A DNA stretch of 64,000 nucleotides, taken from the NCBI RefSeq assembly GCF_001677475.2, contig NZ_CP015229.1. The stretch is one strand, 5' to 3'. The DNA is from Escherichia coli (lineage in GTDB: Bacteria; Pseudomonadota; Gammaproteobacteria; Enterobacterales; Enterobacteriaceae). Both the position numbers and the translations under genes were made by a program. Below the pieces are notes generated by a model. That model was given only the letters and a program-made list of their open reading frames with translations. It was not told the origin of the DNA and did no database searches. This document shows positions 13,094-33,155 of the stretch, piece by piece; positions within the stretch are counted from its first letter, which is position 1; each line of letters starts with the position of its first letter.

Positions 13094-13124
13094 GAAAATG
13101 GCGCTGTAAAAGGCGTCATTTTCA
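13094..13124 (+). terminator. terminator-like hairpin after fdnI
   Basis: aaaatggcgc / gcgtcatttt arms (one G-U pair) around a tgtaaaag loop, about 20 bp after the fdnI stop, followed by a T-rich run. Confidence 0.45.
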
Positions 13125-13127
13125 TAT

Positions 13128-13250: not shown

Positions 13251-13301
13251 ATGTTGCGTTTGTCATCAGTTTCAAATGGCTCTTTATAAGGTGCCATTTT
13301 T

Positions 13302-13586: not shown

Positions 13587-13730
13587 CAGTGTCTTTACTC
13601 TCAGTAGTGTTCCTTCACTGGGAACACCATCATTGTTGTTCCTTCTTGCGCAACAATAATCCATTTAGCCATTTCATGTTGGAGAGAGTGCGATGCTGCG
13701 ACCCGATCATGGCAGTCGCAGCAAAGCCTC

Positions 13731-14741: not shown

Positions 14742-14825
14742 AGTTCCTCCTTTTCGGATGATGTTCTGCATAGCAGGTGAGGCAAATGAGATTTATTCGC
14801 CACTACCCAGTATGGATGAGATCTG

Positions 14826-14868
14826 AAAAAGGAAGAGGAAAATTGCCCGGTAGCCTTCACTACCGGGC
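14826..14868 (-). terminator. rho-independent terminator after maeA
   Basis: gcccggtag (14845-14853) / ctaccgggc (14860-14868) stem, followed on the minus strand by a U-rich tract (plus-strand aaaaaggaagaggaaaatt). Confidence 0.55.
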
Positions 14869-14874
14869 GCAGGC

Positions 14875-16572
14875 TTAGATGGAGGTACGGCGGTAGTCGC
14901 GGTATTCGGCTTGCCAGAAATTATCGTCAATGGCTTGTTGCAAAGCTTCGGCAGACGTTTTCACCGCCACGCCTTGCTGCTGCGCCATTTTGCCAACCGC
15001 AAACGCAATTGCGCGGGAGACTTTCTGAATATCTTTTAGTTCCGGTAGTACCAGACCTTCGCCGTTCAGGACCAGCGGCGAATACTGGGCAAGCGTTTCA
15101 CTTGCCGACATCAGCATCTCATCGGTGATACGTGACGCGCCGGAAGCAATAACACCCAGCCCAATGCCCGGGAAAATAAAGGCGTTGTTACACTGGGCGA
15201 TAGGGTAGATTTTATCTTTCCATACCACTGGATTAAACGGACTGCCAGTGGCGACCAGCGCGTTACCTTCAGTCCAGGCGATAATGTCCTGAGGTGTGGC
15301 TTCCACGCGTGAAGTCGGGTTAGACAGCGGCATCACGATCGGACGCGGACAGTGTTTGTGCATCTCACGGATGATCTCTTCCGTAAACAGCCCGGTCTGT
15401 CCTGAGACGCCAATCAGAATATCTGGTTTTACATTGCGCACCACGTCCAGCAGTGACAGCACATCGCTGTCGGTATCCCAGTCACTGAGATTTTCGCGTT
15501 TCTGCACCAGTTTGGTCTGGAAAGGCAGCAGGTTCGGCATCTTGTCGGTCAGCAGGCCAAAGCGATCGACCATAAAGACTTTCTGCCGCGCCGTTTCCTC
15601 GCTTAATCCTTCACGCTGAGTCTGGGCAATGATCATTTCGGCAATGCCGCATCCCGCTGAACCTGCGCCAAGGAAGACGATTTTTTTCTCGCTTAACTGA
15701 CCACCTGCCGCGCGGCTGGCTGCGATCAGTGTGCCGACCGTTACCGCCGCGGTGCCCTGAATGTCATCGTTAAAAGAACAAATTTCATTGCGATAGCGGT
15801 TAAGTAACGGCATCGCATTTTTTTGTGCGAAGTCTTCAAACTGCAACAGCACGTCCGGCCAGCGTTGTTTCACAGCCTGGATAAATTCATCAACGAATTC
15901 ATAGTATTCGTCGTCAGTGATACGCGGATTACGCCAGCCCATATACAGCGGATCGTTAAGCAGCTGTTGGTTGTTCGTCCCGACATCCAGCACCACCGGA
16001 AGGGTATACGCCGGGCTGATGCCGCCACAGGCGGTATAGAGTGACAGTTTACCGATCGGAATGCCCATCCCGCCGATGCCCTGGTCACCAAGCCCCAGAA
16101 TACGTTCACCGTCAGTCACCACAATCACTTTAATATTATGGTTCGGCACGTTTTGCAGAATATCGTCCATATTGTGGCGGTTCTGGTAAGAGATAAACAC
16201 GCCGCGTGAACGGCGGTAGATCTCAGAAAAACGCTCACAGGCTGCGCCGACGGTTGGGGTATAAATAACAGGCATCATCTCATCAAGATGATTGTTTACC
16301 AGACGGTAGAAGAGGGTTTCGTTAGTGTCCTGGATGTTACGCAGGTAGATGTGTTTGTCGATTTCGGTTTTGAATCCCTGATACTGGATCCATGCTCGTT
16401 CCGCTTGTTCTTCGATGGTTTCGACCACTTCCGGCAGTAACCCCAGCAGGTTGAAGTTACGGCGTTCTTCCATGCTGAAGGCACTGCCTTTATTCAACAA
16501 CGGAAATTCCAGCAGTACAGGGCCAGCGTAAGGGATATAAAGCGAACGCTGTTTTTTTGTTTTTGGTTCCAT
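14875..16572 (-). CDS. maeA: NAD-dependent malic enzyme
   Basis: ORF 14875..16608 trimmed to the [23 protein letters not shown]... start at 16572 (565 aa). Upstream in-frame ATGs at 16608 and 16599 are alternative starts. Confidence 0.9.
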
Positions 16573-16660
16573 GTCACTCACTCTTTTTTGAATATCCATC
16601 CCTGGCACGCTTTTATCGTCTTTGCTTTACCGCCAGGGCGTCGGCCCCAAGTATAAAGCA

Positions 16661-16698
16661 GATAAAAACAAAAACACCATTGCGCAGGCAATGGTGTT
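16661..16698 (-). terminator. rho-independent terminator after sra
   Basis: 10-bp stem aacaccattg / caatggtgtt with loop cgcagg, followed on the minus strand by UUUUGUUUUUAUC. Confidence 0.6.
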
Positions 16699-16728
16699 TA
16701 ATCGTCATTGAGGACTGATGGTTATGAA

Positions 16729-16866
16729 TTACTTTTCAGCGGGGCGTTTTCTGCCGGTTGGGTTATTTACCACGCTGGATTTGTCACCTTCGGTAACTAT
16801 TTTGCGCTGGTTAGAAATTTTATGGTCCAGTCCAAGAATATGACGTGCCTGACGGTTCGATTTCAT
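16729..16866 (-). CDS. sra: stationary-phase-induced ribosome-associated protein (45 aa)
   Basis: Below the ORF-track length cutoff; found by manual translation: [45 protein letters not shown], with GAGGAG RBS upstream. Confidence 0.88.
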
Positions 16867-16967
16867 TTTAACTCCTCAATCCTGTTGCTAGTTTTAAGGA
16901 CAACATCGCCGTAGCGAAGAAACACGTGCTAAACCCCTAAATTAGGTTGCCGATCAAGCATAGCACC

Positions 16968-17183
16968 TTAAAGCGTAGGGTGCTGGCCACTGACCACATA
17001 ATTGATCGTTTGCTGGTAGATATCACTGAGGATGTCGTTATCAGAAGCTTCCACCCATTTGGTCAGCTCCATGAGAATGTCATCTTCAGTGACAACACCG
17101 TGCTCTGCCCGAAGGCCTTGCTCAATGGCATTAACCAGAGCGGGTTCTGCTGTTGAATTTTCTGCCTGATAATAAGTAAACAT
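16968..17183 (-). CDS. bdm: biofilm-dependent modulation protein (71 aa)
   Basis: ORF 16968..17246 trimmed to ATG 17183 (MFTYYQAENSTAEPALVNAIEQG...). Confidence 0.88.
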   Translation of the reverse strand: MFTYYQAENSTAEPALVNAIEQGLRAEHGVVTEDDILMELTKWVEASDNDILSDIYQQTINYVVSGQHPTL

Positions 17184-17277
17184 AGTGATTCTCCGTGTCT
17201 GTGTATTTATGGTGTCTGCTACGGATCGCAGATTTATAAAGCACATTCAGCATGGCAAATATTTGCCGCTTCGTTGT

Positions 17278-17291
17278 TAAGATTAGTCCTG
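17278..17291. promoter_or_regulatory. RcsB-box-like motif (TAAGATTAGTCCTG) in the bdm/osmC divergent region
   Basis: 11 of 14 positions match the RcsB box consensus TAAGAATAATCCTA as I recall it; osmC and bdm are known Rcs targets. Confidence 0.35.
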
Positions 17292-17527
17292 GTTGATGAG
17301 TTTTATATTTTAACACTATGATATTGATAGGGATTGTTATTGGTGTGAATCGATTAATATTGATACAATATCTTTTGAGTCATATATTTCCTGTTATCTA
17401 TTGTGGGAATTTAATTTAAGTACAGAGATAATGTTTTCGCCGGATTTCATTCGGAATATCCTGCTTATCCTCGTGCTGTTTCTCACGTAGTCTATAATTT
17501 CCTTTTTAAGCCCACAGGAGAGCAACA

Positions 17528-17956
17528 ATGACAATCCATAAGAAAGGTCAGGCACACTGGGAAGGCGATATCAAACGCGGGAAGGGAACAGTATCCACCG
17601 AGAGCGGCGTGCTGAACCAACAGCCGTATGGATTTAACACGCGTTTTGAAGGCGAAAAAGGAACCAACCCTGAAGAACTGATTGGCGCAGCGCATGCCGC
17701 ATGTTTCTCAATGGCGCTTTCATTAATGCTGGGGGAAGCGGGATTCACGCCAACATCGATTGATACCACCGCCGATGTGTCGCTGGATAAAGTGGATGCC
17801 GGTTTTGCGATTACGAAAATCGCACTGAAGAGTGAAGTTGCGGTGCCGGGTATTGATGCCTCTACCTTTGACGGCATCATCCAGAAAGCAAAAGCAGGAT
17901 GTCCGGTTTCACAGGTACTGAAAGCGGAAATTACGCTGGTATTAGACGTCAACTAG
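17528..17956 (+). CDS. osmC: osmotically inducible peroxiredoxin OsmC, with its last residues replaced by IS-derived codons
   Basis: MTIHKKGQAHWEGDIKRGKGTV... through ...VLKAEITL, then VLDVN-stop read from the IS end. The expected native C-terminus DYQLKS-stop is found intact at 20355..20375, on the far side of the IS. Confidence 0.85.
   Translation: MTIHKKGQAHWEGDIKRGKGTVSTESGVLNQQPYGFNTRFEGEKGTNPEELIGAAHAACFSMALSLMLGEAGFTPTSIDTTADVSLDKVDAGFAITKIALKSEVAVPGIDASTFDGIIQKAKAGCPVSQVLKAEITLVLDVN
17932..17938. repeat. target-site duplication (TACGCTG), left copy
   Basis: The same 7-mer is found at 20348..20354 directly flanking the other IS end. Confidence 0.55.
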
Positions 17957-18004
17957 TTTTGCCGACTCGCGCCAACTATACTGGCCGCACCCTTCAGGGC
18001 GACA

Positions 18005-18760
18005 TCAAGTCGCGCTTGTTACTGCCTTCGCTGTCTTTTTCCTGTAGCTTTCCCCTTTCAGTTCGAACATATATCCGTGATGGATCAGCCTGTCTGCCGC
18101 AGCCACCGCCATAGTCTCATCCACGAAGATGCTGCCCCACATGCTGAACGGATGGTTACTGGTTATCACCAGGCTCCCACGTTCATAGCGATGCGCTATT
18201 AACTCGAACAGCACACCCGTTTCGGCACTATCGCGTTTGACATAGCCAAGATCATCCACCACTATCACCCGGTAGCGATCCAGTTTCAGTAGCAGCTCAT
18301 TCAGTTTCAACTGAGCTCTGGCTTTACGTAGTTCCTGCAACAGCTCTCCTGCGCTGTAGAACCGGGCCCGGTAGCCCTGACCTACTACGCCATCCACGAT
18401 CGCTGCCGCCAGATGGCTTTTCCCCAACCCGCTGGCTCCGAACAGCAGAACGTTTTCTCCTGCATCAACCCAGTCTGTCGTTTCACAGAGTTGCCGGAAC
18501 TGAGCTCCATTCAGTTCCGGCACCTGACTGAAGTCGTATTCGCTCAGCGTTTTGGCAACTGGCAACCGGGCCTCCTTTTTATAACGACGCAGTTTTTCAC
18601 TCTCGCGCCACAGGAGTTCTTCATTGCATAGCGTCAGAAGATAGCGCGATGGTGTCCAGCCTTCTGCCAGCGCTCGTTTTTCCAGAGCGTGCCATTCAGC
18701 TCCAACTCGTGTCAGGCGTAGTTTACGCAGGCTATGTTCAAGGTGATGGATATTGCTCAC
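18005..18760 (-). CDS. istB: IS21-family helper ATPase IstB
   Basis: 251 aa with Walker A GASGLGKSHLA and Walker B VIVVDDLG; start overlaps the istA stop (ATGA), typical for IS21. Confidence 0.88.
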   Translation of the reverse strand: MSNIHHLEHSLRKLRLTRVGAEWHALEKRALAEGWTPSRYLLTLCNEELLWRESEKLRRYKKEARLPVAKTLSEYDFSQVPELNGAQFRQLCETTDWVDAGENVLLFGASGLGKSHLAAAIVDGVVGQGYRARFYSAGELLQELRKARAQLKLNELLLKLDRYRVIVVDDLGYVKRDSAETGVLFELIAHRYERGSLVITSNHPFSMWGSIFVDETMAVAAADRLIHHGYMFELKGESYRKKTAKAVTSAT

Positions 18761-20256
18761 TGCGAACCTCCCTTGCCACGCAGTAGTTGCTCATAACTGC
18801 TCAGGTTATGCTGTATCACATTGACTACCGGCAACGCCTTTTCTTTTATACCCAGGAAGCGCATCAGCCGGTGCAGATCCACGTTTCCCGGGGTATTCAG
18901 CATCTGCTCCATACCTTTTGCCACGACTGAGATATCGTCGTATCCTGCAGCCAGTTTCAGGGCATGTACCATCAGCCTTCCTGCCATATCGGGCTCCAGA
19001 TGATTACATAAGCGACGCCACAGCCTCCGCCATTCATCGTCCGGCAGGATGTCATTTCTCAGCGTTGCATGGCAGAACGCACCGGGCTTTTTTGCCAGAC
19101 TGTCGATCACATGTCGGAAGTCGATACGACGGGCCCGCGTCTTCCCTTTTTCTGGTCTGACGCGAGGGCAGCTCATGACCTCGCTGCTGCCAACGTAACA
19201 GCTCAGACGATCGTCCCATAACCTGACCCGTAACAGTTGACCTACAAGCCGGGAAGGTACGCTGTAGACGACGTGCTTCACATTGATGGTACTGCTGCGA
19301 CTAACCCTCACAGTCAGCTCATCATAGTCAGCACTGCGACGAAGCGGCAGCGGTTTCAGATGAAGACGTTCTTCCTTGACCAGATCCTGATTGTTACGGT
19401 TGTGCCGCATAACCTGCTGAGTGATGAAGGCCTGATATTCTTCTATGGTGCTGAAGTCGTTACTGCCCCGCAGTATCAGCGCCTGACAGATACGCCTTTT
19501 CAGATGTCCGTGGGCACTTTCAACCGAGCCATTTTCGTGGCCCCGACCGGCATTATTGTGTACGCCCTGCATTCCGTAGTGCTGACAGAGAGTAGCATAA
19601 CGCTCAGTCAGCTCGCGGCGTCCATCTTCGCCCTGTTGTTTCCATGCTGCCCTCAGGCTGTCCGTTTTATGTTCTACCGGCACTCCGCCCAGTTGTCCGA
19701 GGGCTTCCTGCAGGCCTTCAGCCAGAGCAGAGAAGCTCTCACCACCCAGAACAACCCGCATCCAGCTCCAGTGGCTCCATTCCAGACGGAAGTGATACAA
19801 CTTATGCGCCAACAACTTACCGGCGATGGTGACAACTACACCTTTCAGTTCAGTAAAGTCCGACAGGCCTCGCAGGCCGGGCTGATGTTGCTGGCGGAAC
19901 ATGACCTCCTGCTCTGTACCATACTGTAGTTTCCATTCGCGAACCCGCCGTTGCATTGTTCTTCGAAGGCTGTTGGGGTACTGGCCGGGATATTTATCCT
20001 GTAGCATCTCCAGTAGAGTTGTTGGTGTCAGAGCCGGCCTCTCTTTCAACAGAGGAACAAGCATGCTGTCCCACACAGCTTCCAGAGGATCTTTGCGTGT
20101 GCGCCAGTGCCGAACACTGTTTTTTGCCCACTCTCCTTTTTCGATCCGACGACCAGAACGGACTGAGATACCAGCCTTCATGGCCGAGATATGCTGAGTT
20201 ATACCTTTCTTACGCTGAGTCATATAGTAACTGACCTGAGAAGTATTGAGCGTCAC
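18757..20256 (-). CDS. istA: IS21-family transposase IstA
   Basis: 499-aa ORF with N-terminal HTH and a DDE-type integrase core (HTDSLRAAW...GHENGSVESAHGHLKR); an alternative start is the internal Met at MTQRKKG. Confidence 0.85.
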   Translation of the reverse strand: MTLNTSQVSYYMTQRKKGITQHISAMKAGISVRSGRRIEKGEWAKNSVRHWRTRKDPLEAVWDSMLVPLLKERPALTPTTLLEMLQDKYPGQYPNSLRRTMQRRVREWKLQYGTEQEVMFRQQHQPGLRGLSDFTELKGVVVTIAGKLLAHKLYHFRLEWSHWSWMRVVLGGESFSALAEGLQEALGQLGGVPVEHKTDSLRAAWKQQGEDGRRELTERYATLCQHYGMQGVHNNAGRGHENGSVESAHGHLKRRICQALILRGSNDFSTIEEYQAFITQQVMRHNRNNQDLVKEERLHLKPLPLRRSADYDELTVRVSRSSTINVKHVVYSVPSRLVGQLLRVRLWDDRLSCYVGSSEVMSCPRVRPEKGKTRARRIDFRHVIDSLAKKPGAFCHATLRNDILPDDEWRRLWRRLCNHLEPDMAGRLMVHALKLAAGYDDISVVAKGMEQMLNTPGNVDLHRLMRFLGIKEKALPVVNVIQHNLSSYEQLLRGKGGSQ

Positions 20257-20347
20257 GCCATTTCCTGTTGGATCATGTAAATGACACTCAGGTTACAAAA
20301 CCGGCCAGAATAATCGGCGCCAGGCGGACTGAGTTATTGTCGTCTCA

Positions 20348-20354
20348 TACGCTG
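20348..20354. repeat. target-site duplication (TACGCTG), right copy
   Basis: See left copy; followed by the displaced native osmC 3' end gattaccagttgaaatcgtaa (DYQLKS-stop). Confidence 0.55.
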
Positions 20355-20381
20355 GATTACCAGTTGAAATCGTAAAGCGTT

Positions 20382-20403
20382 GCCGGATGACGCGTCATCC
20401 GGC
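20382..20403. terminator. perfect 22-bp palindrome (gccggatgacg/cgtcatccggc), likely bidirectional terminator
   Basis: Exact inverted repeat between the native osmC stop and the convergent dehydrogenase gene stop (20410). Confidence 0.5.
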
Positions 20404-20409
20404 GAACAC

Positions 20410-21180
20410 TTACTGCGCTACCCAACCGCCATCCATATTCCACGCCACCCCACGCACTTGTGCTGCCGCATCCGAACAGAGAAACAGCGCCAGTTCACCC
20501 AGTTGTTGCGGAGTCACAAATTCACGAGAAGGCTGTTTTTCTGCCAGTAAGGCGTCACGCGCGCTTTCCGCATCTTCGCCTTGCGCAATGCGCTTATCAA
20601 TCTGCTGTTGTACCAGCGGCGTCAGCACCCAGCCAGGGCAGAGCGCGTTGCAGGTAATACCCGTCTGCGCAGTTTCCAGAGCAATGGTCTTTGTGAGTCC
20701 CACCACGCCATGTTTTGCCGCAACATAAGCTGATTTGTCTTTCGACGCTACCAGCCCATGCACAGAGGCAATGTTAATGATCCGACCCCAGTTACGAGTG
20801 CGCATTTCTGGCAGTGCCAGACGCGTGGTGTGAAAGACAGAAGAGAGATTGATGGCGATAATGGCGTTCCATTTTTCTACAGGGAAAGATTCAACCGGGG
20901 AGACATACTGGATCCCGGCGTTATTCACCAGAATGTCCACACCGCCAAATTCCCGCCGTGCGTAGGCCATCATGTTGATAATTTGCGATTCATCGCTGAG
21001 GTCTGCCTCATGATAGCCAGGCGTTTTACCCATACGAGAAACCGCATTGATTGCCGCGTCAACATCACCGAAGCCGTTGAGGATCACTTGCGCGCCAGCG
21101 TTTGCCAGTGTCTGAGCAATACCGAGTCCGATACCGCTGGTGGACCCCGTCACCAGCGCAGTTTTACCTTGTAAATTCAT
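20410..21180 (-). CDS. short-chain dehydrogenase/reductase, 3-hydroxybutyrate dehydrogenase-like
   Basis: 256 aa; TGSTSGIGLGIA cofactor motif, NNAG, and the SxnYxxxK catalytic pattern (SAYVAAKHG). Overall resemblance to BdhA-type D-3-hydroxybutyrate dehydrogenases. Confidence 0.8.
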   Translation of the reverse strand: MNLQGKTALVTGSTSGIGLGIAQTLANAGAQVILNGFGDVDAAINAVSRMGKTPGYHEADLSDESQIINMMAYARREFGGVDILVNNAGIQYVSPVESFPVEKWNAIIAINLSSVFHTTRLALPEMRTRNWGRIINIASVHGLVASKDKSAYVAAKHGVVGLTKTIALETAQTGITCNALCPGWVLTPLVQQQIDKRIAQGEDAESARDALLAEKQPSREFVTPQQLGELALFLCSDAAAQVRGVAWNMDGGWVAQ

Positions 21181-21191
21181 GATGATTTTCC

Positions 21192-22583
21192 TTAGACAAT
21201 GCCGGTGGTGTAGTACACGCCGATGATAAACAGCACGGCCAGACTTTTAATGATCGTAATTGCGAAGATGCCGCCGTAAGCCTGACGGTGACTCAGCCCA
21301 GTAATTGCCAGCAGGGTGATCACAGCGCCGTTATGGGGCAATGTATCCATGCCGCCACTGGCCATAGATGCCACGCGGTGAAAAACTTCCAGTGGAATAT
21401 TGGCAGCGTGCGCAGCGGCAATAAAAGTGTCGGACATAGCCGCAAGAGCAATACTCATCCCGCCGGACGCTGAACCGGTAATTCCGGCAAGTGTGGTGAT
21501 GCTGATGGCTTCGTTGAGTAATGGATCAGGAATGGCGGCCAGCGCCTTTGAGAGCACCAGAAAACCGGGTAGGGCGGCGATAACCGCACCGAAGCCATAT
21601 TCTGAGGCGGTGTTCATCGCAGCCAGAATTGCGCCGCCTACCGCTGTACGGCTTCCTTCTGCCAGTCTTCCATGAATATTGCGATATCCAAAAATCACTA
21701 CCAGCAAAATTCCGGCAATGAGCGCAGCTTCGACGGCCCAGATTGCGGTGATTTTGGCGACATCTGTGGTAATCGGGGCGGTAAGTCCCGGCAACTCCAG
21801 TTGGTGGCTCGCACCGTACCAAACAGGGATCCACCAGGTAAACAACAAGTTCAACAGCCCCACCAGAATCAATGGTGAAATCGCAATGAGTGGGTTCGGT
21901 AAATTGATGTTATCTGGTGTTTCAGGTTCATTAAGTAACTCTGTGCCGTAACCTTCATTTTTTGCCTGCGCTTTACGACGCTGCCGCTCCAGATAGATAA
22001 GCCCGACGGCAATGATAAACAGTGAACCAATAAGCCCCAGCCACGGCGCGGCCCAGGCGTTGGTGCCAAAGAAACTGGTAGGAATAATGTTCTGAATTTG
22101 TGGCGTGCCGGGCAGAGCGTCCATAGTAAAAGAGAATGCTCCCAGGGCCACCGTTGCCGGTATAAGTCGTTTTGGGATGTTACTCTGGCGGAACAGTTCA
22201 GCCGCGAACGGATAAACGGCAAATGCCACCACAAACAGCGACACTCCGCCATAGGTGAGTAATGCACATACCAGCACAATCACCGGAATCGCATGCCGCC
22301 GGCCGAGAATGTTGATTGCAGCAGCGACAATCGAACGAGAAAATCCTGAAAGTTCAATCAGTTTTCCGAACACGGCCCCGAGCAGAAACACCGGGAAGTA
22401 CAATTTCACGAAGCCGACCATTTTTTCCATGAACAGGCCGGTAAATGCTGGGCCAACGGCCCCCGGATCGGTGACAAGAACAGCGCCTAATGCTGCGATG
22501 GGGGCAAAAAGGATAACGCTGTATCCGCGATAGGCTGCCAGCATTAGCAGCCCAAGCGCGGCAAGGGCGATTAATACACTCAT
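21192..22583 (-). CDS. GntP-family hydroxy-acid/H+ permease
   Basis: 463 aa, highly hydrophobic with GntP-like organisation; gene order resembles Bacillus yxjC-scoAB-bdh. Confidence 0.8.
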   Translation of the reverse strand: MSVLIALAALGLLMLAAYRGYSVILFAPIAALGAVLVTDPGAVGPAFTGLFMEKMVGFVKLYFPVFLLGAVFGKLIELSGFSRSIVAAAINILGRRHAIPVIVLVCALLTYGGVSLFVVAFAVYPFAAELFRQSNIPKRLIPATVALGAFSFTMDALPGTPQIQNIIPTSFFGTNAWAAPWLGLIGSLFIIAVGLIYLERQRRKAQAKNEGYGTELLNEPETPDNINLPNPLIAISPLILVGLLNLLFTWWIPVWYGASHQLELPGLTAPITTDVAKITAIWAVEAALIAGILLVVIFGYRNIHGRLAEGSRTAVGGAILAAMNTASEYGFGAVIAALPGFLVLSKALAAIPDPLLNEAISITTLAGITGSASGGMSIALAAMSDTFIAAAHAANIPLEVFHRVASMASGGMDTLPHNGAVITLLAITGLSHRQAYGGIFAITIIKSLAVLFIIGVYYTTGIV

Positions 22584-22628
22584 CGGGACTCCTCAATATC
22601 GTTGTTATAGTGGGTACAGCGAGAGAAG

Positions 22629-23552
22629 TTATGGTTTAAGGGCGAAGCGAAGTTGATGTTCCCGACGCTGCTGGATGTACTGCTTCCGCGATTCATCCCA
22701 GCAGTAAAATCCCTGACCGCTACGTACGCCGATGTCTCCACGTTCCACTTTTTCGGCAACTAATGACATCATGTCGCTGCCAGTCGCTAGTTCAGGGAGC
22801 AGATGGCGACAAATATCCTGCACCGTCGAAAGTCCGGTCATGTCGGCGGCCTCCAGCGGGCCGACCATGGCATAACGTCGCCCAAGCGAGGCGCGCATCA
22901 CCTGATCCACCACTTCTGCACTGGCGATGCCGCTTTTTACGATATGCAGGGCTTCACGCAACAGTGCAAATTGCAGACGGTTGCCGACAAATCCTGGCGC
23001 AGCGCGATCCAGCAACACTGCTTCCAGTTGCAGTGACACAAGCAAGTGTTGCAGCCAGTGCAAATGCTTTGGCTCGGTAACGCTGCCGGGGATAATCTCC
23101 ACAAGTGGAATGAAGTGCGGCGGATGCCAGAAATGGGCGATCAGCAGTCGTTGCGGGTAGCGCATCTTCGCGGCCAGATCATCGGGCGGCAGACCGCTGG
23201 TATTGCTGGCGACAATGGCCTCAGGAGAAATAAGCGTTTCAAGCTCGGTATATAATGCGTGTTTTAGTTCAAGTCGCTCCGGGATCGCCTCAATCAGTAG
23301 TTGCGAGTCGGCGATGTCTGCAAGAGAAGTCGTGCCGTGCAGACGTTTAAGCACATTCTCTTTTTCCGGGGCAGTAAACTGTTCGCAGCTAATCAGCTCA
23401 TCAAGAATTCCGCCTGCAACTACGTGGATTTCTGCAATCCGGCTCTGCTCGGTATCGTACAGCCAGATATCATGACCAAAGCGGGCGAAATGAGTGGCAA
23501 TCCCCACGCCCATCAATCCGGCGCCCAGTACCGCAAATTGTTCAGTTTGCAT
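22629..23552 (-). CDS. 3-hydroxyacyl-CoA dehydrogenase-family NAD-dependent dehydrogenase (subfamily with the HPP..IPLVE motif)
   Basis: 307 aa; N-terminal Rossmann fold ([12 protein letters not shown]) and [14 protein letters not shown]. That motif is the variant I associate with family members acting on free 3-hydroxy acids (L-carnitine or L-gulonate 3-dehydrogenase type) rather than classic Hbd. Confidence 0.75.
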
Positions 23553-24746
23553 GGTGTTCTCCTGTGGTTCTTTCCAGTGTCAGCGCCACGCCCTGACCGC
23601 CACCGACGCACAGCGTCGCCAGCCCTTTTTGCGCATTACGTCGCGCCATTTCATAAATGAGAGTGACCAGAATGCGGCAACCGGAAGCGCCAATAGGATG
23701 CCCAAGTGCGATTGCGCCGCCGTTAACATTCACTTTGTCGCAATCCCAGTTCAGTTCGTCGCCAACGGCCAGCGCCTGCGCTGCGAAAGCCTCGTTGGCT
23801 TCAATAAGATCAATATCTTCCAGCGTCCATCCGCAACGCTTAAGACATTCGCGGGAGCGGCGACCGGACCAATGCCCATAAAGGCAGGATCGACGCCAGA
23901 AACGGCATAACCAGCCACCCGAGCCAGCACAGGGAGACCAAGTTCGGCAGCTTTGCTGGCGCGCATTAACATGACTGCGGCGGCACCATCATTGATGGAA
24001 GAAGCATTTCCTGCGGTGACGCTTCCCGCCCCCGGAAGAAAGGCCGGTTTCAGTTGTGCTAGTTTTTCCAGTTGCGTCCCGGAACGTGGTTGTTCGTCGG
24101 TATTTACCCTGCGTGGTGGTTTTTTACCTTGTGGTACGCTGACCGGAGTAATTTCGTCTGCAAAGCGCCCGGCTTCCATTGCGGCAGCGGCTTTTTGCTG
24201 AGAACGTAGCGCGAATGTGTCCTGTCGCTCGCGACTGATGGCATATTTTTGCGCCAGGTTTTCTGCAGTAATGCCCATGTGGTAATCATTGAAAGCGTCC
24301 CATAGTCCGTCATGCACCACGCTGTCTTTCATGCTGGTATGCCCGAGGCGTAAACCTGCCCGTGCGCCATCAATAAAATAGGGCGCGTTACTCATGCTTT
24401 CCTGGCCACCTGCGATAATTATCTGTGCATCACCGCAACGGATCGCCTGTACGGCCTGGTGTACTGCTTTCAGACCGGAACCACATACCAGGTTGATGGT
24501 AACGGCGGGTGTATCGTGGCTTAACCCGGCTTTGAGCGCCGATTGCCGTGCCGGATTTTGTCCGCTTCCGGCAGTCAGGACCTGACCAAAAATCACTTCG
24601 TCGATCTGTTCTGCTGCAAGTGCTGTTTTCTCCAGCAATGAACGGATGGTGGCAGCGCCGAGATCAACCGCAGAAAGTGGGGCGAGAGCGCCATGAAAAC
24701 AGCCAATCGGTGTGCGCGTAGCGGCAACAATAACAACGTCCTGCAT
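23542..24746 (-). pseudogene. acetyl-CoA acetyltransferase (thiolase) gene interrupted by a 1-nt frameshift
   Basis: The N-terminal ORF (23751..24746; MQDVVIVAATRTPIG...GIGPV) and the C-terminal ORF (23542..23733; ...[25 protein letters not shown]...) are both thiolase but in different frames. Manual translation shows the thiolase frame resumes ([29 protein letters not shown]...) just after GIGPV, so the shift lies near plus-strand 23850-23862. Confidence 0.75.
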
Positions 24747-24755
24747 GGTGATTCC

Positions 24756-25412
24756 TCAGTTGAATTGCATTTCCGGGACATGTTCCGGCACAAACAACTT
24801 ACCGGCGGTTTTGGCGATGATTTCCGCAACGCTGATTCCCGGCGCGCGCTCGCGCAGAATGAAAGCTCCGTCAGCAATTTCCAGCAGAGCAAGGTCGGTT
24901 AAGACGCGTTTGATGCATCCGGCGCCGGTCAACGGAAGGGTACAGTCAGGAAGCAGTTTGGATTCGCCGGATTTGGAGGCGTGGGTCATTACCACAATAA
25001 TATTCTCGGCACCGGCAACCAGATCCATGGCACCGCCCATGCCTTTAACCATCTTGCCGGGGATCATCCATGAGGCAATGTTGCCATTCACATCCACTTC
25101 AAATACGCCAAGTACAGTCAGATCCACATGACCGCCACGGATCATGGCGAATGATTGCGCCGAATCGAAAATTGCCGCGCCTTTCCGCGCGGTAACGGTT
25201 TGTTTACCGGCATTAATCATGTCGGCGTCCAGTTCGTCTTCCGTAGGAAATGCGCCCATTCCCAGCAAACCGTTTTCTGACTGCAACATCACATCCATCC
25301 CGTCAGGAATGTAGTTTGCCACCAGGGTCGGGATACCAATGCCGAGATTGACGTAATAGCCATCGCGCAATTCGCGGGCGACTCGCATCGCCATTTGTTC
25401 ACGGGTTAACAT
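24756..25412 (-). CDS. 3-oxoacid CoA-transferase subunit B (ScoB/AtoA/DhcB-like)
   Basis: 218 aa; conserved ...SENGLLGMGAFP... region with the catalytic Glu of family I CoA-transferase beta subunits. Confidence 0.85.
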   Translation of the reverse strand: MLTREQMAMRVARELRDGYYVNLGIGIPTLVANYIPDGMDVMLQSENGLLGMGAFPTEDELDADMINAGKQTVTARKGAAIFDSAQSFAMIRGGHVDLTVLGVFEVDVNGNIASWMIPGKMVKGMGGAMDLVAGAENIIVVMTHASKSGESKLLPDCTLPLTGAGCIKRVLTDLALLEIADGAFILRERAPGISVAEIIAKTAGKLFVPEHVPEMQFN

Positions 25413-25414
25413 GG

Positions 25415-26122
25415 TCAGGCTCCTTTGCGGCTAAGGGTGCGTTGTTCAATGCGTTTTTCAAATTGCCCCTGAATGACGCGATTAACAAAAATCCCCGGGG
25501 TATGGATAGCGGCAGGATCAAGTTCACCAGGTGGCACTATTTCTTCCACTTCCACCACGGTGATTTTTCCGGCAGCCGCCATCAGTGGGTTGAAGTTTTG
25601 CGCGGTATGACGATAAATCACGTTGCCGTACCAGTCGGCTTTCCAGCCTTTGACCAGGGCAAAATCACCGGTGATAGCCTGTTCCATGATGTACGGGCGA
25701 CCGTTGAATTCGCGGACTTCTTTCCCTTCGGCAACGGGAGTACCGTAACCGGTGGCAGTAAAGAACGCCGGGATACCCGCGCCGCCTGCGCGCAGTTGTT
25801 CTGCCAGGGTTCCTTGTGGTGTGAGAATCGCCTCCAGTTCGCCGTTAAGCACCTGTTTTTCAAACAAAGCATTCTCGCCAACATAAGAAGCGACGACTTT
25901 ACGGATCTGTCGGCTTTCCAGTAGTACATCCAGTCCAAAACCATCTACGCCACAGTTATTGGAAACCACCGTTAATCCGGTTACTCCACGGTGGCGAACT
26001 TCAGCAATCAGATTCTCCGGGATGCCGCACAGGCCAAAACCTCCTGCCAGAATCGTCATCTCATTGGTAAGTCCTTCAAGCGCCTCGTGATACGTAGCGA
26101 CCCGTTTATCCAACCCAGCCAT
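25415..26122 (-). CDS. 3-oxoacid CoA-transferase subunit A (ScoA/AtoD/DhcA-like)
   Basis: 235 aa; MAGLDKRV... and the [10 protein letters not shown] motif typical of alpha subunits; 2-bp spacing to subunit B. Confidence 0.85.
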
Positions 26123-26263
26123 ACAGTTGCCCTCCAGTTGTCCTTTTCAACATCATTAAGGGCAAAAAATGATTTGTTAATTTTAAATTTGTGACTCATT
26201 CATTTGTATTATTTATCAATACAATGTTAATTAAATGTATTCAGTAGGTTAACGGGGTGCCAG

Positions 26264-27154
26264 ATGAAAATGAGCATCAAACAGTTACGCGCGTTTTTAG
26301 CGGTAGCTCACACTCTGAACTTTGCCCATGCCAGTGAACGGCTGAATATGTCGCAGCCTGCGCTAAGTCTTGCCATTAAAGGACTGGAAGATGCCTTAGG
26401 GGGCGCTTTACTGCTGCGTACTACGCGAAAAGTGACATTAACCCAGGAGGGGGAAACGCTATTGTCGATGGCACGGCCTTTGCTGGCTGACTGGGATAAC
26501 ACTGAGGAGGCCATGCGTCAGCGATTCACGCTCAGGCGGGGCAAAGTCTCGGTGGCAGCGATGCCGTCATTTGCAGCCAACGTTCTGCCTCCGGTGCTGA
26601 AAACCTTCCGCGATTGTTATTCAGGGATTAATGTCACCGTGCACGATGTGGTGAATGAGCAGGTGATCGAAATGGTGAGCGAAGGGCGTGTGGAGATGGG
26701 TATTGCCTTTGAACCTGACTATTGCGGCCATGTGCATTTTACCCCACTGGGCGTGGATCGGTTTGTCGCTATTGTTCCAGCCGATTCACGACTGGCAAAT
26801 CGGCAACGCGTGAGTTGGCGGGATTTGCTGACGCTCGATTTTATCACCCTCCAGCGACCGTCAGCCGTCAGGTTGATGCTGGAGGAGCAGTTGGCACAAA
26901 GTGGAACGCAACTGGAAGTGTCGCTGGAAAGCCATCAACTGGTTACGGTTGGGCGGCTGGTGGCAAACGGTTTGGGAGGAAGCGCTGTGCCTGCGCTGTG
27001 CCGCAGGCAGATGAGCGAACTGGGCGCAGTGTGTCTGGAACTGGATAATCCAGTGATTGAGCGACGAGTAGGCGTACTGCGTTCGTCACACCATAAGCTT
27101 TCTACTGCGGCGCAGGCGTTGATGGAAACGTTAAAAAAAACCTATGACGCATAA
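26264..27154 (+). CDS. LysR-family transcriptional regulator, divergent from the CoA-transferase operon
   Basis: 296 aa; N-terminal HTH (IKQLRAFLAVAHTLNFAHASERLNMSQPALSLAIKGLEDALG) plus a LysR substrate-binding domain; the start may be the ATG at 26270. Confidence 0.85.
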   Translation: MKMSIKQLRAFLAVAHTLNFAHASERLNMSQPALSLAIKGLEDALGGALLLRTTRKVTLTQEGETLLSMARPLLADWDNTEEAMRQRFTLRRGKVSVAAMPSFAANVLPPVLKTFRDCYSGINVTVHDVVNEQVIEMVSEGRVEMGIAFEPDYCGHVHFTPLGVDRFVAIVPADSRLANRQRVSWRDLLTLDFITLQRPSAVRLMLEEQLAQSGTQLEVSLESHQLVTVGRLVANGLGGSAVPALCRRQMSELGAVCLELDNPVIERRVGVLRSSHHKLSTAAQALMETLKKTYDA

Positions 27155-27190
27155 CGTTTCCGCAGACATGCAATAGCCGGATGCCGCGTC

Positions 27191-28117
27191 CTACAGCGCC
27201 CGCCAGCAACGGATCTCACGTCCGTCAGCCCGCGTCGTTAATGATTGCCGGACTTCGCATCCGCTGGTTGCAAGGGGGCAACGTTCGCGGAAAAAACAGC
27301 CTTGTGGCAACGTGCGGTTTCCTGGTAGATCCGTTTTACGTAATGCCCATTCTTCCTCCAGCGGTTTATCAATGGCGGGGAGGGAATCCAGCAATAATCG
27401 GGTGTAGGGATGTGCCGGAGCTGTCAGCACCTGTTGCGCGTCTCCTAGTTCCACAATCTGTCCGAGATACATCACCGCCACCCGATCGCTCATATGACGT
27501 ATCACCGAGACATTGTGTGAAATCAGCACATAAGTCAGCTCGCGATTTTCCTGTAGCGTTACCAGTAAATTGAGGATCTGCGCCTGCACGGAGATATCCA
27601 GCGCCGAGGTTGGTTCATCAAGCACAATCACGTCAGGCTGCGAAGAGAGTGCTCTGGCAATGGCGATACGTTGCCGCTGCCCGCCTGAGAACGCATGAGG
27701 CAAGCGGTCGAGATACTCCGGACGAATACCCACCTGCACAGCCAGCTCCTCTGCCAACGCTCGCCGCTGTTGTTCACTACTACGCTTAGCAATCCAGAGC
27801 GGTTCCGTGATGATGCGCCACACCGGTAAGCGCGGATTAAGCGAAGAGAGCGGGTCCTGAAACACCATCTGCATAATGCGTTGTGATCCTGAACGGATGT
27901 ACTGCCCGTGGCTTGGTTGCAGCATACCCATTAAAAGCTGTGCGAGGGTGCTTTTGCCGCAGCCTGACTCACCTACGATCCCTAAGGTTTCACCACGACG
28001 GATCTGTAAATCAATACCATTGATGGCATGAACATGTTCCGTAGTTTTACCAAGCCAGTTTTTTCGGGCCGGGAAATTGATATGGACGTCGCGTAACGTT
28101 AATAACGTGTCAGACAC
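27191..28117 (-). CDS. ddpF: D,D-dipeptide ABC transporter ATP-binding protein
   Basis: ORF trimmed to the GTG at 28117 (V/MSDTLLTLRDVHINF...), preceded by AGGAGG; 308 aa; Walker A GESGCGKST. Confidence 0.88.
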   Translation of the reverse strand: MSDTLLTLRDVHINFPARKNWLGKTTEHVHAINGIDLQIRRGETLGIVGESGCGKSTLAQLLMGMLQPSHGQYIRSGSQRIMQMVFQDPLSSLNPRLPVWRIITEPLWIAKRSSEQQRRALAEELAVQVGIRPEYLDRLPHAFSGGQRQRIAIARALSSQPDVIVLDEPTSALDISVQAQILNLLVTLQENRELTYVLISHNVSVIRHMSDRVAVMYLGQIVELGDAQQVLTAPAHPYTRLLLDSLPAIDKPLEEEWALRKTDLPGNRTLPQGCFFRERCPLATSGCEVRQSLTTRADGREIRCWRAL

Positions 28118-29096
28118 TAATGACCTCCTGCTGAGGATACCAACAGGCGCAGCTGTGGTTGTTGTCACCACACGCTGTCAGCGCCGGGACGTTTTCACAC
28201 TGTGCACCTGCCGCATAGCAACGATCGCGAAAAGCGCAGCCGTCAGGCAAATGGGTGAGGTTTGGTACCGTCCCTGGAATGGCGGGTAATGGCTGGCGCG
28301 GTATTCCATGTTCCGGTGCGCATTGCAGCAAACCAATGGTATACGGATGCCGGGGATGATGGATAACGTCTGCCGTCACGCCGCTCTCAATCACGCTTCC
28401 GGCATACATCACGTAAACGCTATCGCACAGTTGCGACACCACGGCCATATCATGGCTGATGAACAGTACCGCAGTTCCACTGGCGCGGGCTTTATGTTTA
28501 AGCAGACGCAGTACCTGCAACTGTACCGTGACGTCCAGCGCCGTAGTCGGTTCGTCGGCAATAATCAATTGCGGCTCGCAGGAGAATGCCAGCGCAATCA
28601 TTACCCGCTGTCGCATACCACCTGAAAGCTCAAACGGATAGCGCGACATAACTTCCACGGCATCCGGGATTTGCATTTCTTCCAGCAGGGCAATCGCTTT
28701 AGCTCTGGCTTCCCGACGACTTATTGGTTGATGATGGCGGATCACGTCCATCATCTGAAGACCTATTCGACGTGTCGGATTAAGGGCGGTCATCGGTTCC
28801 TGAAAGATCATCGCCACTCGTGCGCCGCGCCACTGACGAAGCTGCTTTTCCCGAGCGTTAAGAGCATCTTCTCCCAGCAGTGAAATATGTCCCCGATCTA
28901 CGCAATAACTGCCCGTCGGTAGCAGACGCATAATCAACATTGCAGTGACTGATTTACCCGAGCCGGATTCTCCCACCAGACCGACAATTTCACCGCGGTT
29001 GATTTTCAATGACACATTGTTGAGCGCGTGAACGTCGCCGTTAAAACCGGGGAAACTCAAATGCAGCTGTTGAATGTCCAGAACGGGTTGGGTCAT
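28110..29096 (-). CDS. ddpD: D,D-dipeptide ABC transporter ATP-binding protein
   Basis: 328 aa; MTQPVLDIQQLHLSF...; Walker A GESGSGKS; overlaps the ddpF start. Confidence 0.9.
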   Translation of the reverse strand: MTQPVLDIQQLHLSFPGFNGDVHALNNVSLKINRGEIVGLVGESGSGKSVTAMLIMRLLPTGSYCVDRGHISLLGEDALNAREKQLRQWRGARVAMIFQEPMTALNPTRRIGLQMMDVIRHHQPISRREARAKAIALLEEMQIPDAVEVMSRYPFELSGGMRQRVMIALAFSCEPQLIIADEPTTALDVTVQLQVLRLLKHKARASGTAVLFISHDMAVVSQLCDSVYVMYAGSVIESGVTADVIHHPRHPYTIGLLQCAPEHGIPRQPLPAIPGTVPNLTHLPDGCAFRDRCYAAGAQCENVPALTACGDNNHSCACWYPQQEVISV

Positions 29097-29989
29097 GACT
29101 GCTTTCCTCCTGCTTTCGGGTCAAGCAGATCGCGAATACCATCGCCAAAGAGATTAAACCCGACGGCGGTAAGCAAAATCGCTGCCCCCGGAAATGCGCA
29201 ATACCACCATTGATCGAGCACATAGTTGCGACCATTCGCCACCATCGCCCCCCATTCAGCACTCGGTTGTTGAGCACCCAGGCCAATAAATCCCAACGTG
29301 GCGGCCATTAAAATCGCGCTACCGATATCCAGCGATGCCTGCACAATCAGTGGCGGCAGGGAGTTACGTAAAATATGCCAGTTGATCAGATGCCAACGCG
29401 ACGCACCAAAGGTTTTCGCCGCCTGAACATAGGTATACTGGCGAACAACTAATGTTTGCCCCCGCGCCAGGCGCACATAAAAGGGAATTCGCACAATAGC
29501 AATCGCCAGCATGGCGTTAAACAAACTCGGCCCGAGAGCGGCTGCCAGTGCCATTGTCAGCACCAGCGAAGGAATCGACAGCATAATGTCCATGATGCGC
29601 ATGATAATCGCGTCTGCGCGTCCGCCAAGCACACCGGATAGACACCCGAGTAGCGAACCCATCATACCTGCAATGGCGACCACCACTAATCCGGCGAGAA
29701 TTGATTGCTGACTGCCGACCAGTACGCGGCTAAACAGATCGCGTCCCACTTCATCGGTGCCAAACCAGTGCGCCGCAGAAGGCGGCAAAAGGCGGGCGGT
29801 TAAATCAATGGCGTTGGGATCATGCGTCGCCAGCCACGGTGAAAAAATCATCATCAGTAGCATTAATACAATGATGACTGAGCCGGTCACGGTAAGCGGG
29901 CTGCCTTTCAGCATCCATACCAGTTTTGCACCGTTAAATCGCGTTTGTTTTGGTGGGCGCACGGCTGACGTTTCCTCGCTTAGCATCAT
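29093..29989 (-). CDS. ddpC: D,D-dipeptide ABC transporter permease
   Basis: 298 aa membrane protein; 4-bp overlaps with neighbours (operon). Confidence 0.9.
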   Translation of the reverse strand: MMLSEETSAVRPPKQTRFNGAKLVWMLKGSPLTVTGSVIIVLMLLMMIFSPWLATHDPNAIDLTARLLPPSAAHWFGTDEVGRDLFSRVLVGSQQSILAGLVVVAIAGMMGSLLGCLSGVLGGRADAIIMRIMDIMLSIPSLVLTMALAAALGPSLFNAMLAIAIVRIPFYVRLARGQTLVVRQYTYVQAAKTFGASRWHLINWHILRNSLPPLIVQASLDIGSAILMAATLGFIGLGAQQPSAEWGAMVANGRNYVLDQWWYCAFPGAAILLTAVGFNLFGDGIRDLLDPKAGGKQS

Positions 29990-31008
29990 TCACCACCTCC
30001 ACGTCCGATACGCGGATCAATCCACAAATAGAGCAAATCCACCACCAGGTTCACCAGCACATAAGCAAACGAAACCACGACGGCAAAGCCCATCACTGCC
30101 GGGAAGTCGAGCGCCTGTATTGATGTTACTACCCATGCACCCATTCCGGGCCAGGCAAAAACGGTTTCGGTGAGCACTGCGCCATACAACAAATCGCCCA
30201 GCGCCAGACCCAATACGGTAATCGATGGGATCAACGCATTGGGTAGCGCATAACATAAAACGATATACCAGCCGGGCAAGCCGCTGGCCCGGGCGGTACG
30301 AATGTAGTCTTCACTCAATTGTTCCAGCATCGCTGAGCGGATCTGGCGAGCGACAATTCCCAGGTGAACGAACGCCAGCGTTAATGCCGGTAAGATGAGA
30401 TGTTGTAGCGCATTGAAGAAGACTTCACCGTTACCTTCAAGCAGCGCATCGAGCAGATAAAAGCCGGTAACGTGCATTGGTGGATCCAGCCAGTCATCAA
30501 GCCTTCCGCCGCCGGGAAGAATTTGCAGATGACCATAAAACAGCACAATGACGCCCAGCCCAAGCCAGAACGCAGGTGTGGAGATTCCGGTAATGGCCAT
30601 TATTCGCACCAGATGATCCAGCCAGCGATTTCGCCAGACTGCAGAGAGTATGCCCAGCGGGATGCCAATCAAGAGTGCCAGCAGCAGGGCACAAAAAGCC
30701 AGTTCCAGCGTCGCCGGGAAAAATATACGCAACTCTTCCAGCACCGGACGTCCGGTACGAATGGATGTTCCCAGGTCACCATGAAACAGGTCGCTGACGT
30801 AGCGGTAAAACTGTACATACAGTGGCTGGTCCAGTCCCAGTTGCTGGCGAATATTTTCCACGATAGCATCGCTGGCGCGGTCACCCGCCAGTAACCGCGC
30901 CGGATCACCAGGGATCAGATGCGAGATAATAAACGTAATCACACAGACGCCCACCACCACGAGCACCAGCCCCCAGCAGCGTTGGCGTAAAATACTCCAG
31001 AAGGTCAC
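29986..31008 (-). CDS. ddpB: D,D-dipeptide ABC transporter permease
   Basis: 340 aa membrane protein, DppB-like. Confidence 0.9.
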   Translation of the reverse strand: MTFWSILRQRCWGLVLVVVGVCVITFIISHLIPGDPARLLAGDRASDAIVENIRQQLGLDQPLYVQFYRYVSDLFHGDLGTSIRTGRPVLEELRIFFPATLELAFCALLLALLIGIPLGILSAVWRNRWLDHLVRIMAITGISTPAFWLGLGVIVLFYGHLQILPGGGRLDDWLDPPMHVTGFYLLDALLEGNGEVFFNALQHLILPALTLAFVHLGIVARQIRSAMLEQLSEDYIRTARASGLPGWYIVLCYALPNALIPSITVLGLALGDLLYGAVLTETVFAWPGMGAWVVTSIQALDFPAVMGFAVVVSFAYVLVNLVVDLLYLWIDPRIGRGGGE

Positions 31009-31009
31009 G

Positions 31010-32560
31010 TTATTTACTCATGGTATTGATATTGAAGACCTGTTCCAGCATGGGATTGAACACAAAGCCTTTCACCTCTTTGTTCATCGCCAGTTGGTAG
31101 TTTTTCTGGAACAGGTACACATAAGCAGCGTCATCAATGACGATTTTCTGTGCCTGCTGGTAGTCCCGGGTACGCTGCGTCTGGTCGGTGGTCGCTAGCG
31201 CATTGCGCAGTAGCTTATCGACCTCACTGTTTTCATAGAACGAGCGGTTACCCGGCAGACCTTTTTTGTCTGACTCAAACCAGTAATTCATAAACATATA
31301 CGGGTCGGCAAAATCCGGACTCCAGTTGCCAATCGCGATGTCGTAATCACCTTTACCCACTCTGTCGCGCATGGTGGCGTTCGCCAGCTTTTCCAGCTTC
31401 ACATTGATGCCCAGCTTGTTGAGACTGGATTGTGTCGCCAGAGCAATAGGCTCCCAGTTCGGATCATTATCAGAATAGAGAAACGTCAGGCTGGTGGGTT
31501 TGCTCGTCACTTTATCCCATTCGGCTTTGGCTTTCGTTTCGTCATGGTTGTATTGCATTGCCGTCGCATCGTATCCCCACATGCCTTCCGGAATCGGGCC
31601 GCGCATTTGTTTTCCGTTACCACTCAGAATGCCGTTAACCATGCCCTGATAATCGGTAGACCAGGAAATGGCCCGACGCAGATCCGCCTGATTAAGTGGC
31701 GCTTTGCTGTTATTCAGATACAGATAGGTGACGCGCAGTGACGGATACTCTGCCACATTGACTTTATTTTCCTGCTTCAGGGCGTTGAGTTGATCCACCG
31801 GCAGCGCATCGGCAATGTCAATGTCGCCACGGGAGAGCTGCAGGCGACGGGAGGCACTTTCACCGATAATTTTTACCGATACTCGCTTAAAGTTCGGTTT
31901 ATTGCTAGGGTAATGCGGATTTGGCACCAGAACTAATTGCTGACCTTTTTGCCAGCTTTTCAGCATAAACGGTCCGGAGCCAGCGGTATTTTGCGCGAGG
32001 AAGCCACGGGCGTCATCCGCCGCATGTTCCTTTAAGACCGCCGGATTGATAATGGATGCACCGTCATTCGCCAGCGTGTAGAGGAACGGTGCGAATGGTT
32101 GGCTAAGGGTAAACTTCACCGTATGTTCGTCGGGAGCATCAATCTTTAAATCTTTGGGAAATGCTTCTGCTGGCCCCTGGCCGATTTTTAGTAGCCGCTC
32201 AAAAGAGAGTTTTACTGCTTCGGCAGTGACCGGTGTGCCATCGGCAAATTTAGCATTATCCTTCAGGGTAAACGTCCACTCTTTTTGATCGTCAGACGCT
32301 TTCCAGCTACTTGCCAGATCGCCTTCAACGTCGGTTGAGCCTTTATCACCGTCCGTTTTGTACTGAACCAGTCGCTGATAAGACGGGTAGGTCACTGTCC
32401 AGTCGTTATTATCAATTGTCACCGCTGGGTCGAGGGTTTGTGGGTCGGCAGCTTTACCGATCACCAGCATATCTTTCGGTACGGCGGCGTGCGCAACCGG
32501 CATTGTTGTGGCAAGGACGATCGCGAGCAATGTAGGACGAAACAAAATCGATCTCTTCAT
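31010..32560 (-). CDS. ddpA: D,D-dipeptide periplasmic binding protein
   Basis: ORF 31010..32695 trimmed to ATG 32560 (MKRSILFRPTLLAIVLATTMPVAHA signal peptide), 516 aa. Confidence 0.9.
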   Translation of the reverse strand: MKRSILFRPTLLAIVLATTMPVAHAAVPKDMLVIGKAADPQTLDPAVTIDNNDWTVTYPSYQRLVQYKTDGDKGSTDVEGDLASSWKASDDQKEWTFTLKDNAKFADGTPVTAEAVKLSFERLLKIGQGPAEAFPKDLKIDAPDEHTVKFTLSQPFAPFLYTLANDGASIINPAVLKEHAADDARGFLAQNTAGSGPFMLKSWQKGQQLVLVPNPHYPSNKPNFKRVSVKIIGESASRRLQLSRGDIDIADALPVDQLNALKQENKVNVAEYPSLRVTYLYLNNSKAPLNQADLRRAISWSTDYQGMVNGILSGNGKQMRGPIPEGMWGYDATAMQYNHDETKAKAEWDKVTSKPTSLTFLYSDNDPNWEPIALATQSSLNKLGINVKLEKLANATMRDRVGKGDYDIAIGNWSPDFADPYMFMNYWFESDKKGLPGNRSFYENSEVDKLLRNALATTDQTQRTRDYQQAQKIVIDDAAYVYLFQKNYQLAMNKEVKGFVFNPMLEQVFNINTMSK

Positions 32561-32573
32561 GACAGTTTCCTGA

Positions 32574-33155
32574 TTAACTGGCGTGCTGTGTGCCAGGGGA
32601 TATAAAACAGGTGAATTGATCAGCGAGTAGTGGGTAACTCGCTGCCTGGGGTAATTCGAAGTGCCACCATTCGCTCGGGATACCGACAAAGCCACCGCCA
32701 GTCATAATCGCATTCAGCAACAGCCGATTGCGCTGAGCGGCTGGCGGGACGGAAGGGTGATAAGCATGGGAACGTTCGTGCATTTCATCGAACTCTGCAC
32801 CCATATCCAGTATGTTCCCGTGCTCATCACGAAGCGTCAGGTCGATCGCCGTGCCACGGCTGTGATTAGAACCGACCGCCACATCAACAACATATTGCGG
32901 GTCTGGGCAGGCTTGCCACAACATCGCCTGTGCTTGTTGTGGGCGATACGCATCGTAAATCACCAGTTGTAAGCCTGACAGCTGGGCGATACTGATACTT
33001 TTCGCCAGCGCAGTAATCGCATCCTTGTGTAACAGACAACGCGCTTGCTGGTAAATAGCTTTACCTGTGATGTTATCAGCGCAGGCATATTTCAATTCGA
33101 TCTCCAGATCAGGGAAGATCACGGCTAAATCAACCAGTTCGGTGGTATCCGACAT
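32574..33155 (-). CDS. ddpX: D-Ala-D-Ala dipeptidase (VanX homolog)
   Basis: 193 aa MSDTTELVDLAVIFPDLEIELKYA...; zinc-binding His/Asp pattern of VanX-type dipeptidases. Confidence 0.9.
   Translation of the reverse strand: MSDTTELVDLAVIFPDLEIELKYACADNITGKAIYQQARCLLHKDAITALAKSISIAQLSGLQLVIYDAYRPQQAQAMLWQACPDPQYVVDVAVGSNHSRGTAIDLTLRDEHGNILDMGAEFDEMHERSHAYHPSVPPAAQRNRLLLNAIMTGGGFVGIPSEWWHFELPQAASYPLLADQFTCFISPGTQHAS

Follow-up and report, generated by a model that had tools for sequence, protein, structure and literature searches.

A one-base deletion in a thiolase gene from an accessory cluster on the Escherichia coli chromosome

The stretch of Escherichia coli DNA analysed in this study (64,000 nucleotides, hereafter the window) carries a thiolase gene that is broken in two, and it raises the question of whether one base has really been lost from the gene or was missed in the sequencing. 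A first-pass annotation had recognised the N- and C-terminal halves of the enzyme in different minus-strand frames, had placed the break within positions 23845-23865, and had left an early pseudogenization and a homopolymer sequencing error as the two possible explanations. The split of the gene is confirmed here, and the missing base could be assigned to the junction 23855/23856, inside that interval.

The thiolase gene and the site of the deletion

The gene, whose product we take to be an acetyl-CoA C-acetyltransferase (thiolase II), is 1205 nt in length, against 1206 nt in the intact gene. The intact reference was that of strain PCN033 (positions 1651198-1652403, 1206 nt, 401 aa, WP_001154415.1). 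The features of the gene in the window are the following:

23855..23856, minus strand: position of the missing base (alignment with PCN033 and 23-AB02114; plus strand read)
23542..24746, minus strand: whole thiolase pseudogene (alignment; TIGR01930; matches to PDB thiolases)
23751..24746, minus strand: truncated frame of 331 aa, made of native residues 1-297 (including the nucleophile Cys88), 34 out-of-frame residues and a stop (ORF list, alignment)
23542..23854, minus strand: C-terminal remnant in another frame, comprising codons 299-401 and the stop, with Asn318, His350 and Cys380 (translation, motif positions)
23542-23733, minus strand: 63-aa ORF with a GTG start, the sole callable ORF in the C-terminal remnant (ORF list; Pfam Thiolase_C)

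The alignment with the orthologues of PCN033 and 23-AB02114, which are intact at this site, revealed that a T is absent from the plus strand between 23855 and 23856. In the sense strand this is equivalent to the loss of the A in GCCGCT[A]CCCGCG, read as GCC GCT [A]CC CGC, which is gene position 892 and belongs to codon 298 (Thr, ACC). The plus strand at the deletion is GCGGG^AGCGG in the window and GCGGGTAGCGG in intact genomes, and the non-deleted allele at the site would read GCTACCCGC. When the missing base was restored, a protein of 401 aa was obtained that was 100% identical to WP_001154415.1. Beyond the deletion, the gene differed from that of PCN033 by two substitutions, both of them synonymous, and no further damage was found in it. 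It must be noted that the lost A stands alone between a T and CCC, and that its context, GCT[A]CCC, is neither a repeat nor a homopolymer.

With respect to the protein, the native residues end in ...GIGPVAA (297 aa) and are followed by 34 nonsense residues and by a stop at 23751-23753, while the C-terminal part (GHPIGASG...CVGGGQG...HHAN*) is readable as far as 23542 in a different frame of the minus strand. The frameshift and the truncation described in the first-pass annotation are thus maintained, and its figures are corrected: the native end is GIGPVAA instead of GIGPV, the nonsense codons are 34 instead of 35, and the restored protein has 401 aa instead of roughly 395. In precomputed Pfam results for identical gene calls, Thiolase_N (PF00108) matched the 331-aa product and Thiolase_C (PF02803) matched the 63-aa ORF. 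The intact protein scored 501 bits on TIGR01930, above the cut-off of 240.55, and 677 bits on NF004206, just below the cut-off of 688. It also aligned end to end with solved thiolases, among them PDB 8gqj ('Thiolase'), those of Zoogloea ramigera (1dlu/1qfl) and the E. coli AtoB-like 4wyr and 5f38, with E values from 5e-183, the best one, to 1e-127, and the type II (biosynthetic/degradative) thiolases with structures share with it the CxGGGQG motif. Compared with these enzymes, only the N-terminal three quarters are in frame in the window.

The catalytic motifs of the intact protein are those of Cys88 (VCGSG), Asn318 (NEAF), His350 (GHPIGASG) and Cys380 (CVGGGQG). Every thiolase of this class requires the equivalents of Asn318, His350 and Cys380. 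The ancestral or repaired gene is a thiolase, with Thiolase_N and Thiolase_C over about 390-400 aa, whereas the gene of the window does not encode a thiolase in one polypeptide, since Cys88 is kept while the frame of Asn318, His350 and Cys380 is lost, and the truncated product is also without most of the C-terminal domain. Given the loss of the three C-terminal residues, and despite the retention of Cys88, the truncated thiolase would be a null allele.

The gene cluster and its chromosomal setting

The thiolase is the fourth of seven genes of a cluster, whose other members are the following:

26264..27154, plus strand: LysR-family regulator, divergent, intact, 296 aa (ORF list, RefSeq context, NCBIfam search)
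25415..26122, minus strand: 3-oxoacid CoA-transferase subunit A, intact, 235 aa (TIGR02429)
24756..25412, minus strand: 3-oxoacid CoA-transferase subunit B, intact, 218 aa, with A103V at 25105 (sub-lineage) (TIGR02428)
22629..23552, minus strand: 3-hydroxyacyl-CoA dehydrogenase family, intact, its ATG overlapping the normal thiolase stop by 11 nt (ORF list, NCBIfam)
21192..22583, minus strand: GntP-family permease, intact, 463 aa, presumed substrate importer (RefSeq annotation name; no NCBIfam match at 1e-20)
20410..21180, minus strand: 3-hydroxybutyrate dehydrogenase, intact, 256 aa (NF009093 and TIGR01963 above cut-offs)

All six are full length and identical or nearly so to the products of PCN033. 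The models for the 3-hydroxybutyrate dehydrogenase (Bdh; NF009093, TIGR01963), for transferase subunits A and B (TIGR02429, TIGR02428) and for the thiolase (TIGR01930) were all above their cut-offs, as corresponds to a catabolic cluster. The cluster probably breaks down 3-hydroxybutyrate and acetoacetate. According to the family assignments, imported 3-hydroxybutyrate would be converted into acetoacetate, this into acetoacetyl-CoA and the latter into two acetyl-CoA, with the thiolase acting last. In a promoter and terminator scan of the cluster, the counts were at or below the shuffled expectation.

The atoDAEB operon of E. coli encodes a two-subunit CoA-transferase, an acetoacetyl-CoA thiolase and a transporter, which take acetoacetate to acetyl-CoA. 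The cluster of the window presents the same combination of CoA-transferase, thiolase and transporter, although it is located at another locus, it has a LysR regulator instead of AtoSC, and its permease is of the GntP and not of the AtoE type. The match of its CoA-transferase subunit A to an AtoD-type model was weak (195 bits, with a cut-off of 315), and the transferase subunits are of the ScoAB/PcaIJ type. In addition, the cluster goes beyond atoDAEB in having 3-hydroxybutyrate and 3-hydroxyacyl-CoA dehydrogenases.

A megablast search found the cluster in 231 of 5426 complete E. coli genomes (~4%), with 1502 subject bases per 1501 query bases. PCN033, as well as many other strains that share WP_001154415.1, has the same ddpF-osmC locus and gene order as the window, with an intact thiolase gene, in contrast to that of the window, where the absence of one base of codon 298 leaves 331 aa without the C-terminal catalytic residues. 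A plasmid or mobile location of the cluster was considered and rejected, given that all 232 matches were chromosomal and that the cluster is located between ddpF and osmC. In this regard, the first-pass annotation had suggested that 'chromosomal thiolases' might compensate for the loss, a wording which implies that the cluster is not chromosomal and which does not hold.

In K-12, the gap between osmC and ddpF is 55 bp, and it is there that the cluster is inserted in the 231 genomes. The island that contains the cluster in the window extends from 20398 to 27190 (~6.8 kb), has REP-like palindromes at both edges, and its GC content is 53.5%, compared with about 51% in the flanks. In the literature searched we found no study of this E. 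coli cluster, only unrelated papers on PHB engineering and other subjects; being seemingly unstudied, the cluster is of more interest than the mutation in it.

Origin of the missing base

The comparison with orthologous clusters of other E. coli genomes, proposed in the first-pass annotation, showed that the window had lost one base, which is kept by 230 complete genomes. Of the 5426 complete E. coli genomes searched, 230 have this segment and all of them lack the deletion, and the best identity of the deletion segment in them was 99.3%, corresponding to the one gap. This absence seemed at first to support an error, and it was overturned when the exact 331-aa product was looked up. The frameshift product is present, without any change, in a collection of 15 billion proteins, and the deletion (hereafter delta-A) is found on at least 18 other public contigs. 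Among its carriers are the NCBI draft GCA_018682815.1, the assemblies of runs SRR3929499 and SRR11608754 in Logan, and a contig of ERR10434813 that is common to 13 samples, so that the support for it comes from assemblies built from independent sequencing runs (SRR, ERR) plus the NCBI draft. Over 12-21 kb, the identity of the carrier loci to the window was 99.98-100%, with 0-2 SNPs. They constitute three haplotypes, which are distinguished by C or T at 25105, by A or T at 25649 and by the presence or absence of ISEc10:

Haplotype 1: window, SRR3929499 and ERR10434813; T at 25105 (CoA-transferase B A103V)
Haplotype 2: SRR11608754; T at 25649 (CoA-transferase A K158N)
Haplotype 3: GCA_018682815.1; neither change, and no ISEc10 beside the cluster

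As all three haplotypes carry the deletion, it must be older than their split and inherited. It must also be recent, because the gene shows no other damage, its neighbours are intact and the carriers are near-identical.

An indel with respect to 230 genomes that is reproduced in independent assemblies corresponds to a pseudogene by frameshift, and we are confident, from the sequence comparisons, that the deletion in the thiolase of this chromosomal accessory cluster is genuine and clonally inherited. It is an ordinary, young, lineage-specific frameshift pseudogene, with nothing new in kind. The early pseudogenization that had been proposed is therefore borne out by the identity of 100% between the repaired ORF and its orthologue, by the six intact neighbours and by the presence of the deletion in related isolates.

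The other proposal, that a homopolymer was miscalled in sequencing or assembly and that the strain has an intact thiolase of 401 aa, is very improbable. No assembly artefact is commoner than the absence of a single base, the genome of the window is outside the RefSeq complete genomes searched, and the same gene of strain 23-AB02114 (ACIJQ5_RS11700), placed in the same cluster with intact neighbours, is annotated as 'frameshifted' in RefSeq by a one-base deletion that could be such an artefact. That event is independent, since a G was lost from a run of five (G5, gene position 710-714) in a copy of the gene with about 98% identity, and it is compatible with a homopolymer error, unlike the deletion in the window, where the lost A is unique and outside any homopolymer. 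Moreover, the identical deletion was found on the contigs mentioned above, from independent assemblies and in three haplotypes, one of them without ISEc10, and the base is present in all 230 other genomes, which gives no sign of a systematic error at the site. A sequencing artefact is thus effectively excluded. Even less credit can be given to the possibility that a full-length thiolase is produced by ribosomal frameshifting or transcriptional slippage, or that the two fragments form an active enzyme. It is true that both halves are perfectly preserved and that a GTG could serve as the start of the 63-aa ORF downstream, but the recent origin of the deletion, as indicated by the 0-2 SNPs of its carriers over 12-21 kb, explains this preservation equally well. 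The ancestral gene was in frame, a state which is kept almost everywhere (230 of 230 complete genomes), and the -1 shift needed would have to occur at GCC GCU CCC GCG, where there is neither an X XXY YYZ heptamer nor a nucleotide run; with its orthologues in frame and without a slippery motif at the site, the gene does not correspond to a programmed frameshift or slippage. Against a split enzyme, the 63-aa ORF begins at residue 339, and residues 298-338, including Asn318 (NEAF), are missing from it. In attention to the sequence, a two-piece enzyme and recoding are not plausible.

A further reading, which is compatible with a genuine deletion, is that inactivation of the thiolase is advantageous in the carriers of the cluster, and that null alleles arise and spread repeatedly. 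Other null alleles were sought through the 63-aa C-terminal ORF, an ORF that is called only when the thiolase is broken. At least six independent ones exist elsewhere. Five of them came from this search, namely Q324* (CAG to TAG), G306* (GGA to TGA), delta-G1001 and two larger deletions, of 194 bp and 838 bp, with the thiolase region at about 1987-3192 of each compared locus. The sixth is the delta-G in the G5 run of the complete genome of 23-AB02114, with the thiolase at 3155-4359 of the compared locus. The neighbouring genes were intact in every one of these genomes, the delta-A allele is present in more than 13 sequenced samples, and two of the three haplotype SNPs alter an amino acid of the CoA-transferase subunits that the cluster encodes, all of which speaks for selection. 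Against it, the way in which the alleles were found biases their ascertainment, the tally covers the thiolase alone, and some alleles come from assemblies of single read sets and may be errors. In addition, the identical intact protein is present on at least 1000 contigs, with the nulls as a small minority, as for any accessory gene. We consider this reading unlikely. The stronger statement, that the thiolase is a repeated target of selected loss, with seven independent nulls, one of them clonally expanded, as convergent inactivation in a cluster that works better or differently without it, would be slightly less likely still. If it were true, acetoacetyl-CoA could, for example, be fed to other enzymes, or a futile or toxic flux could be avoided. 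The recurrent loss of the thiolase is consequently offered as a lead only.

Isolates of the delta-A clone differ by three SNPs over about 21 kb, two of which are missense (25105, A103V, and 25649, K158N). These changes could be a weak, post hoc hint of a relaxed selection on the pathway after the loss of the thiolase.

Consequences for the pathway and other features of the window

Returning to the deletion as a genuine frameshift, the loss of the A of the Thr298 codon shifts the frame after residue 297 and leads translation through the 34 wrong codons to the stop at 23751-23753. The cluster would then no longer encode its last step, from acetoacetyl-CoA to two acetyl-CoA. Ribosomes would terminate 199 nt ahead of the dehydrogenase gene that follows, and translational coupling would be lost, which could lower the expression of the three downstream genes, and some polarity would be possible. 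This effect may matter little, because the ATG of the downstream dehydrogenase gene is preceded, at about 7 nt, by an AGGAG of its own.

The housekeeping thiolases of E. coli are AtoB, YqeF, FadA and FadI. It is plausible that any of them could replace the lost activity, and such a replacement would explain why the loss is tolerated. If strains of the delta-A clone still employ the cluster for 3-hydroxybutyrate or acetoacetate, they would be expected to rely on other thiolases. With respect to annotation, the gene should be recorded as a genuine frameshifted pseudogene and not be "corrected", and one E. coli clone is cleanly marked by the delta-A allele.

The end of osmC next to the cluster is interrupted by an IS21-family element at 17932-20355, which is 99.9% identical to ISEc10 (ISEc10 at about 17940-20347), carries istB (18005-18760, minus strand) and istA (18757-20256, minus strand), and lies inside the 3' end of osmC, with an 8-bp direct repeat, TACGCTGG, on its two sides. 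As a result of the insertion, the last six residues of OsmC (DYQLKS) are replaced by VLDVN in the ORF at 17528-17956 (plus strand). The insertion of ISEc10 is more recent than the deletion in the thiolase, given that the sister isolate GCA_018682815.1 lacks the element.

None of the 5426 complete RefSeq E. coli genomes exceeded an identity of about 98.4% to the window over 25 kb of core genes (39001-64000; also 13000-33000), and consequently the source lineage is absent from them. Finally, fdnG (8483-11530, plus strand) is listed as two ORFs of 195 and 803 aa. A disruption of this gene was considered and rejected, since the in-frame TGA at 9068-9070 (ARV-U-HGPTV) encodes the selenocysteine that formate dehydrogenase-N normally contains.
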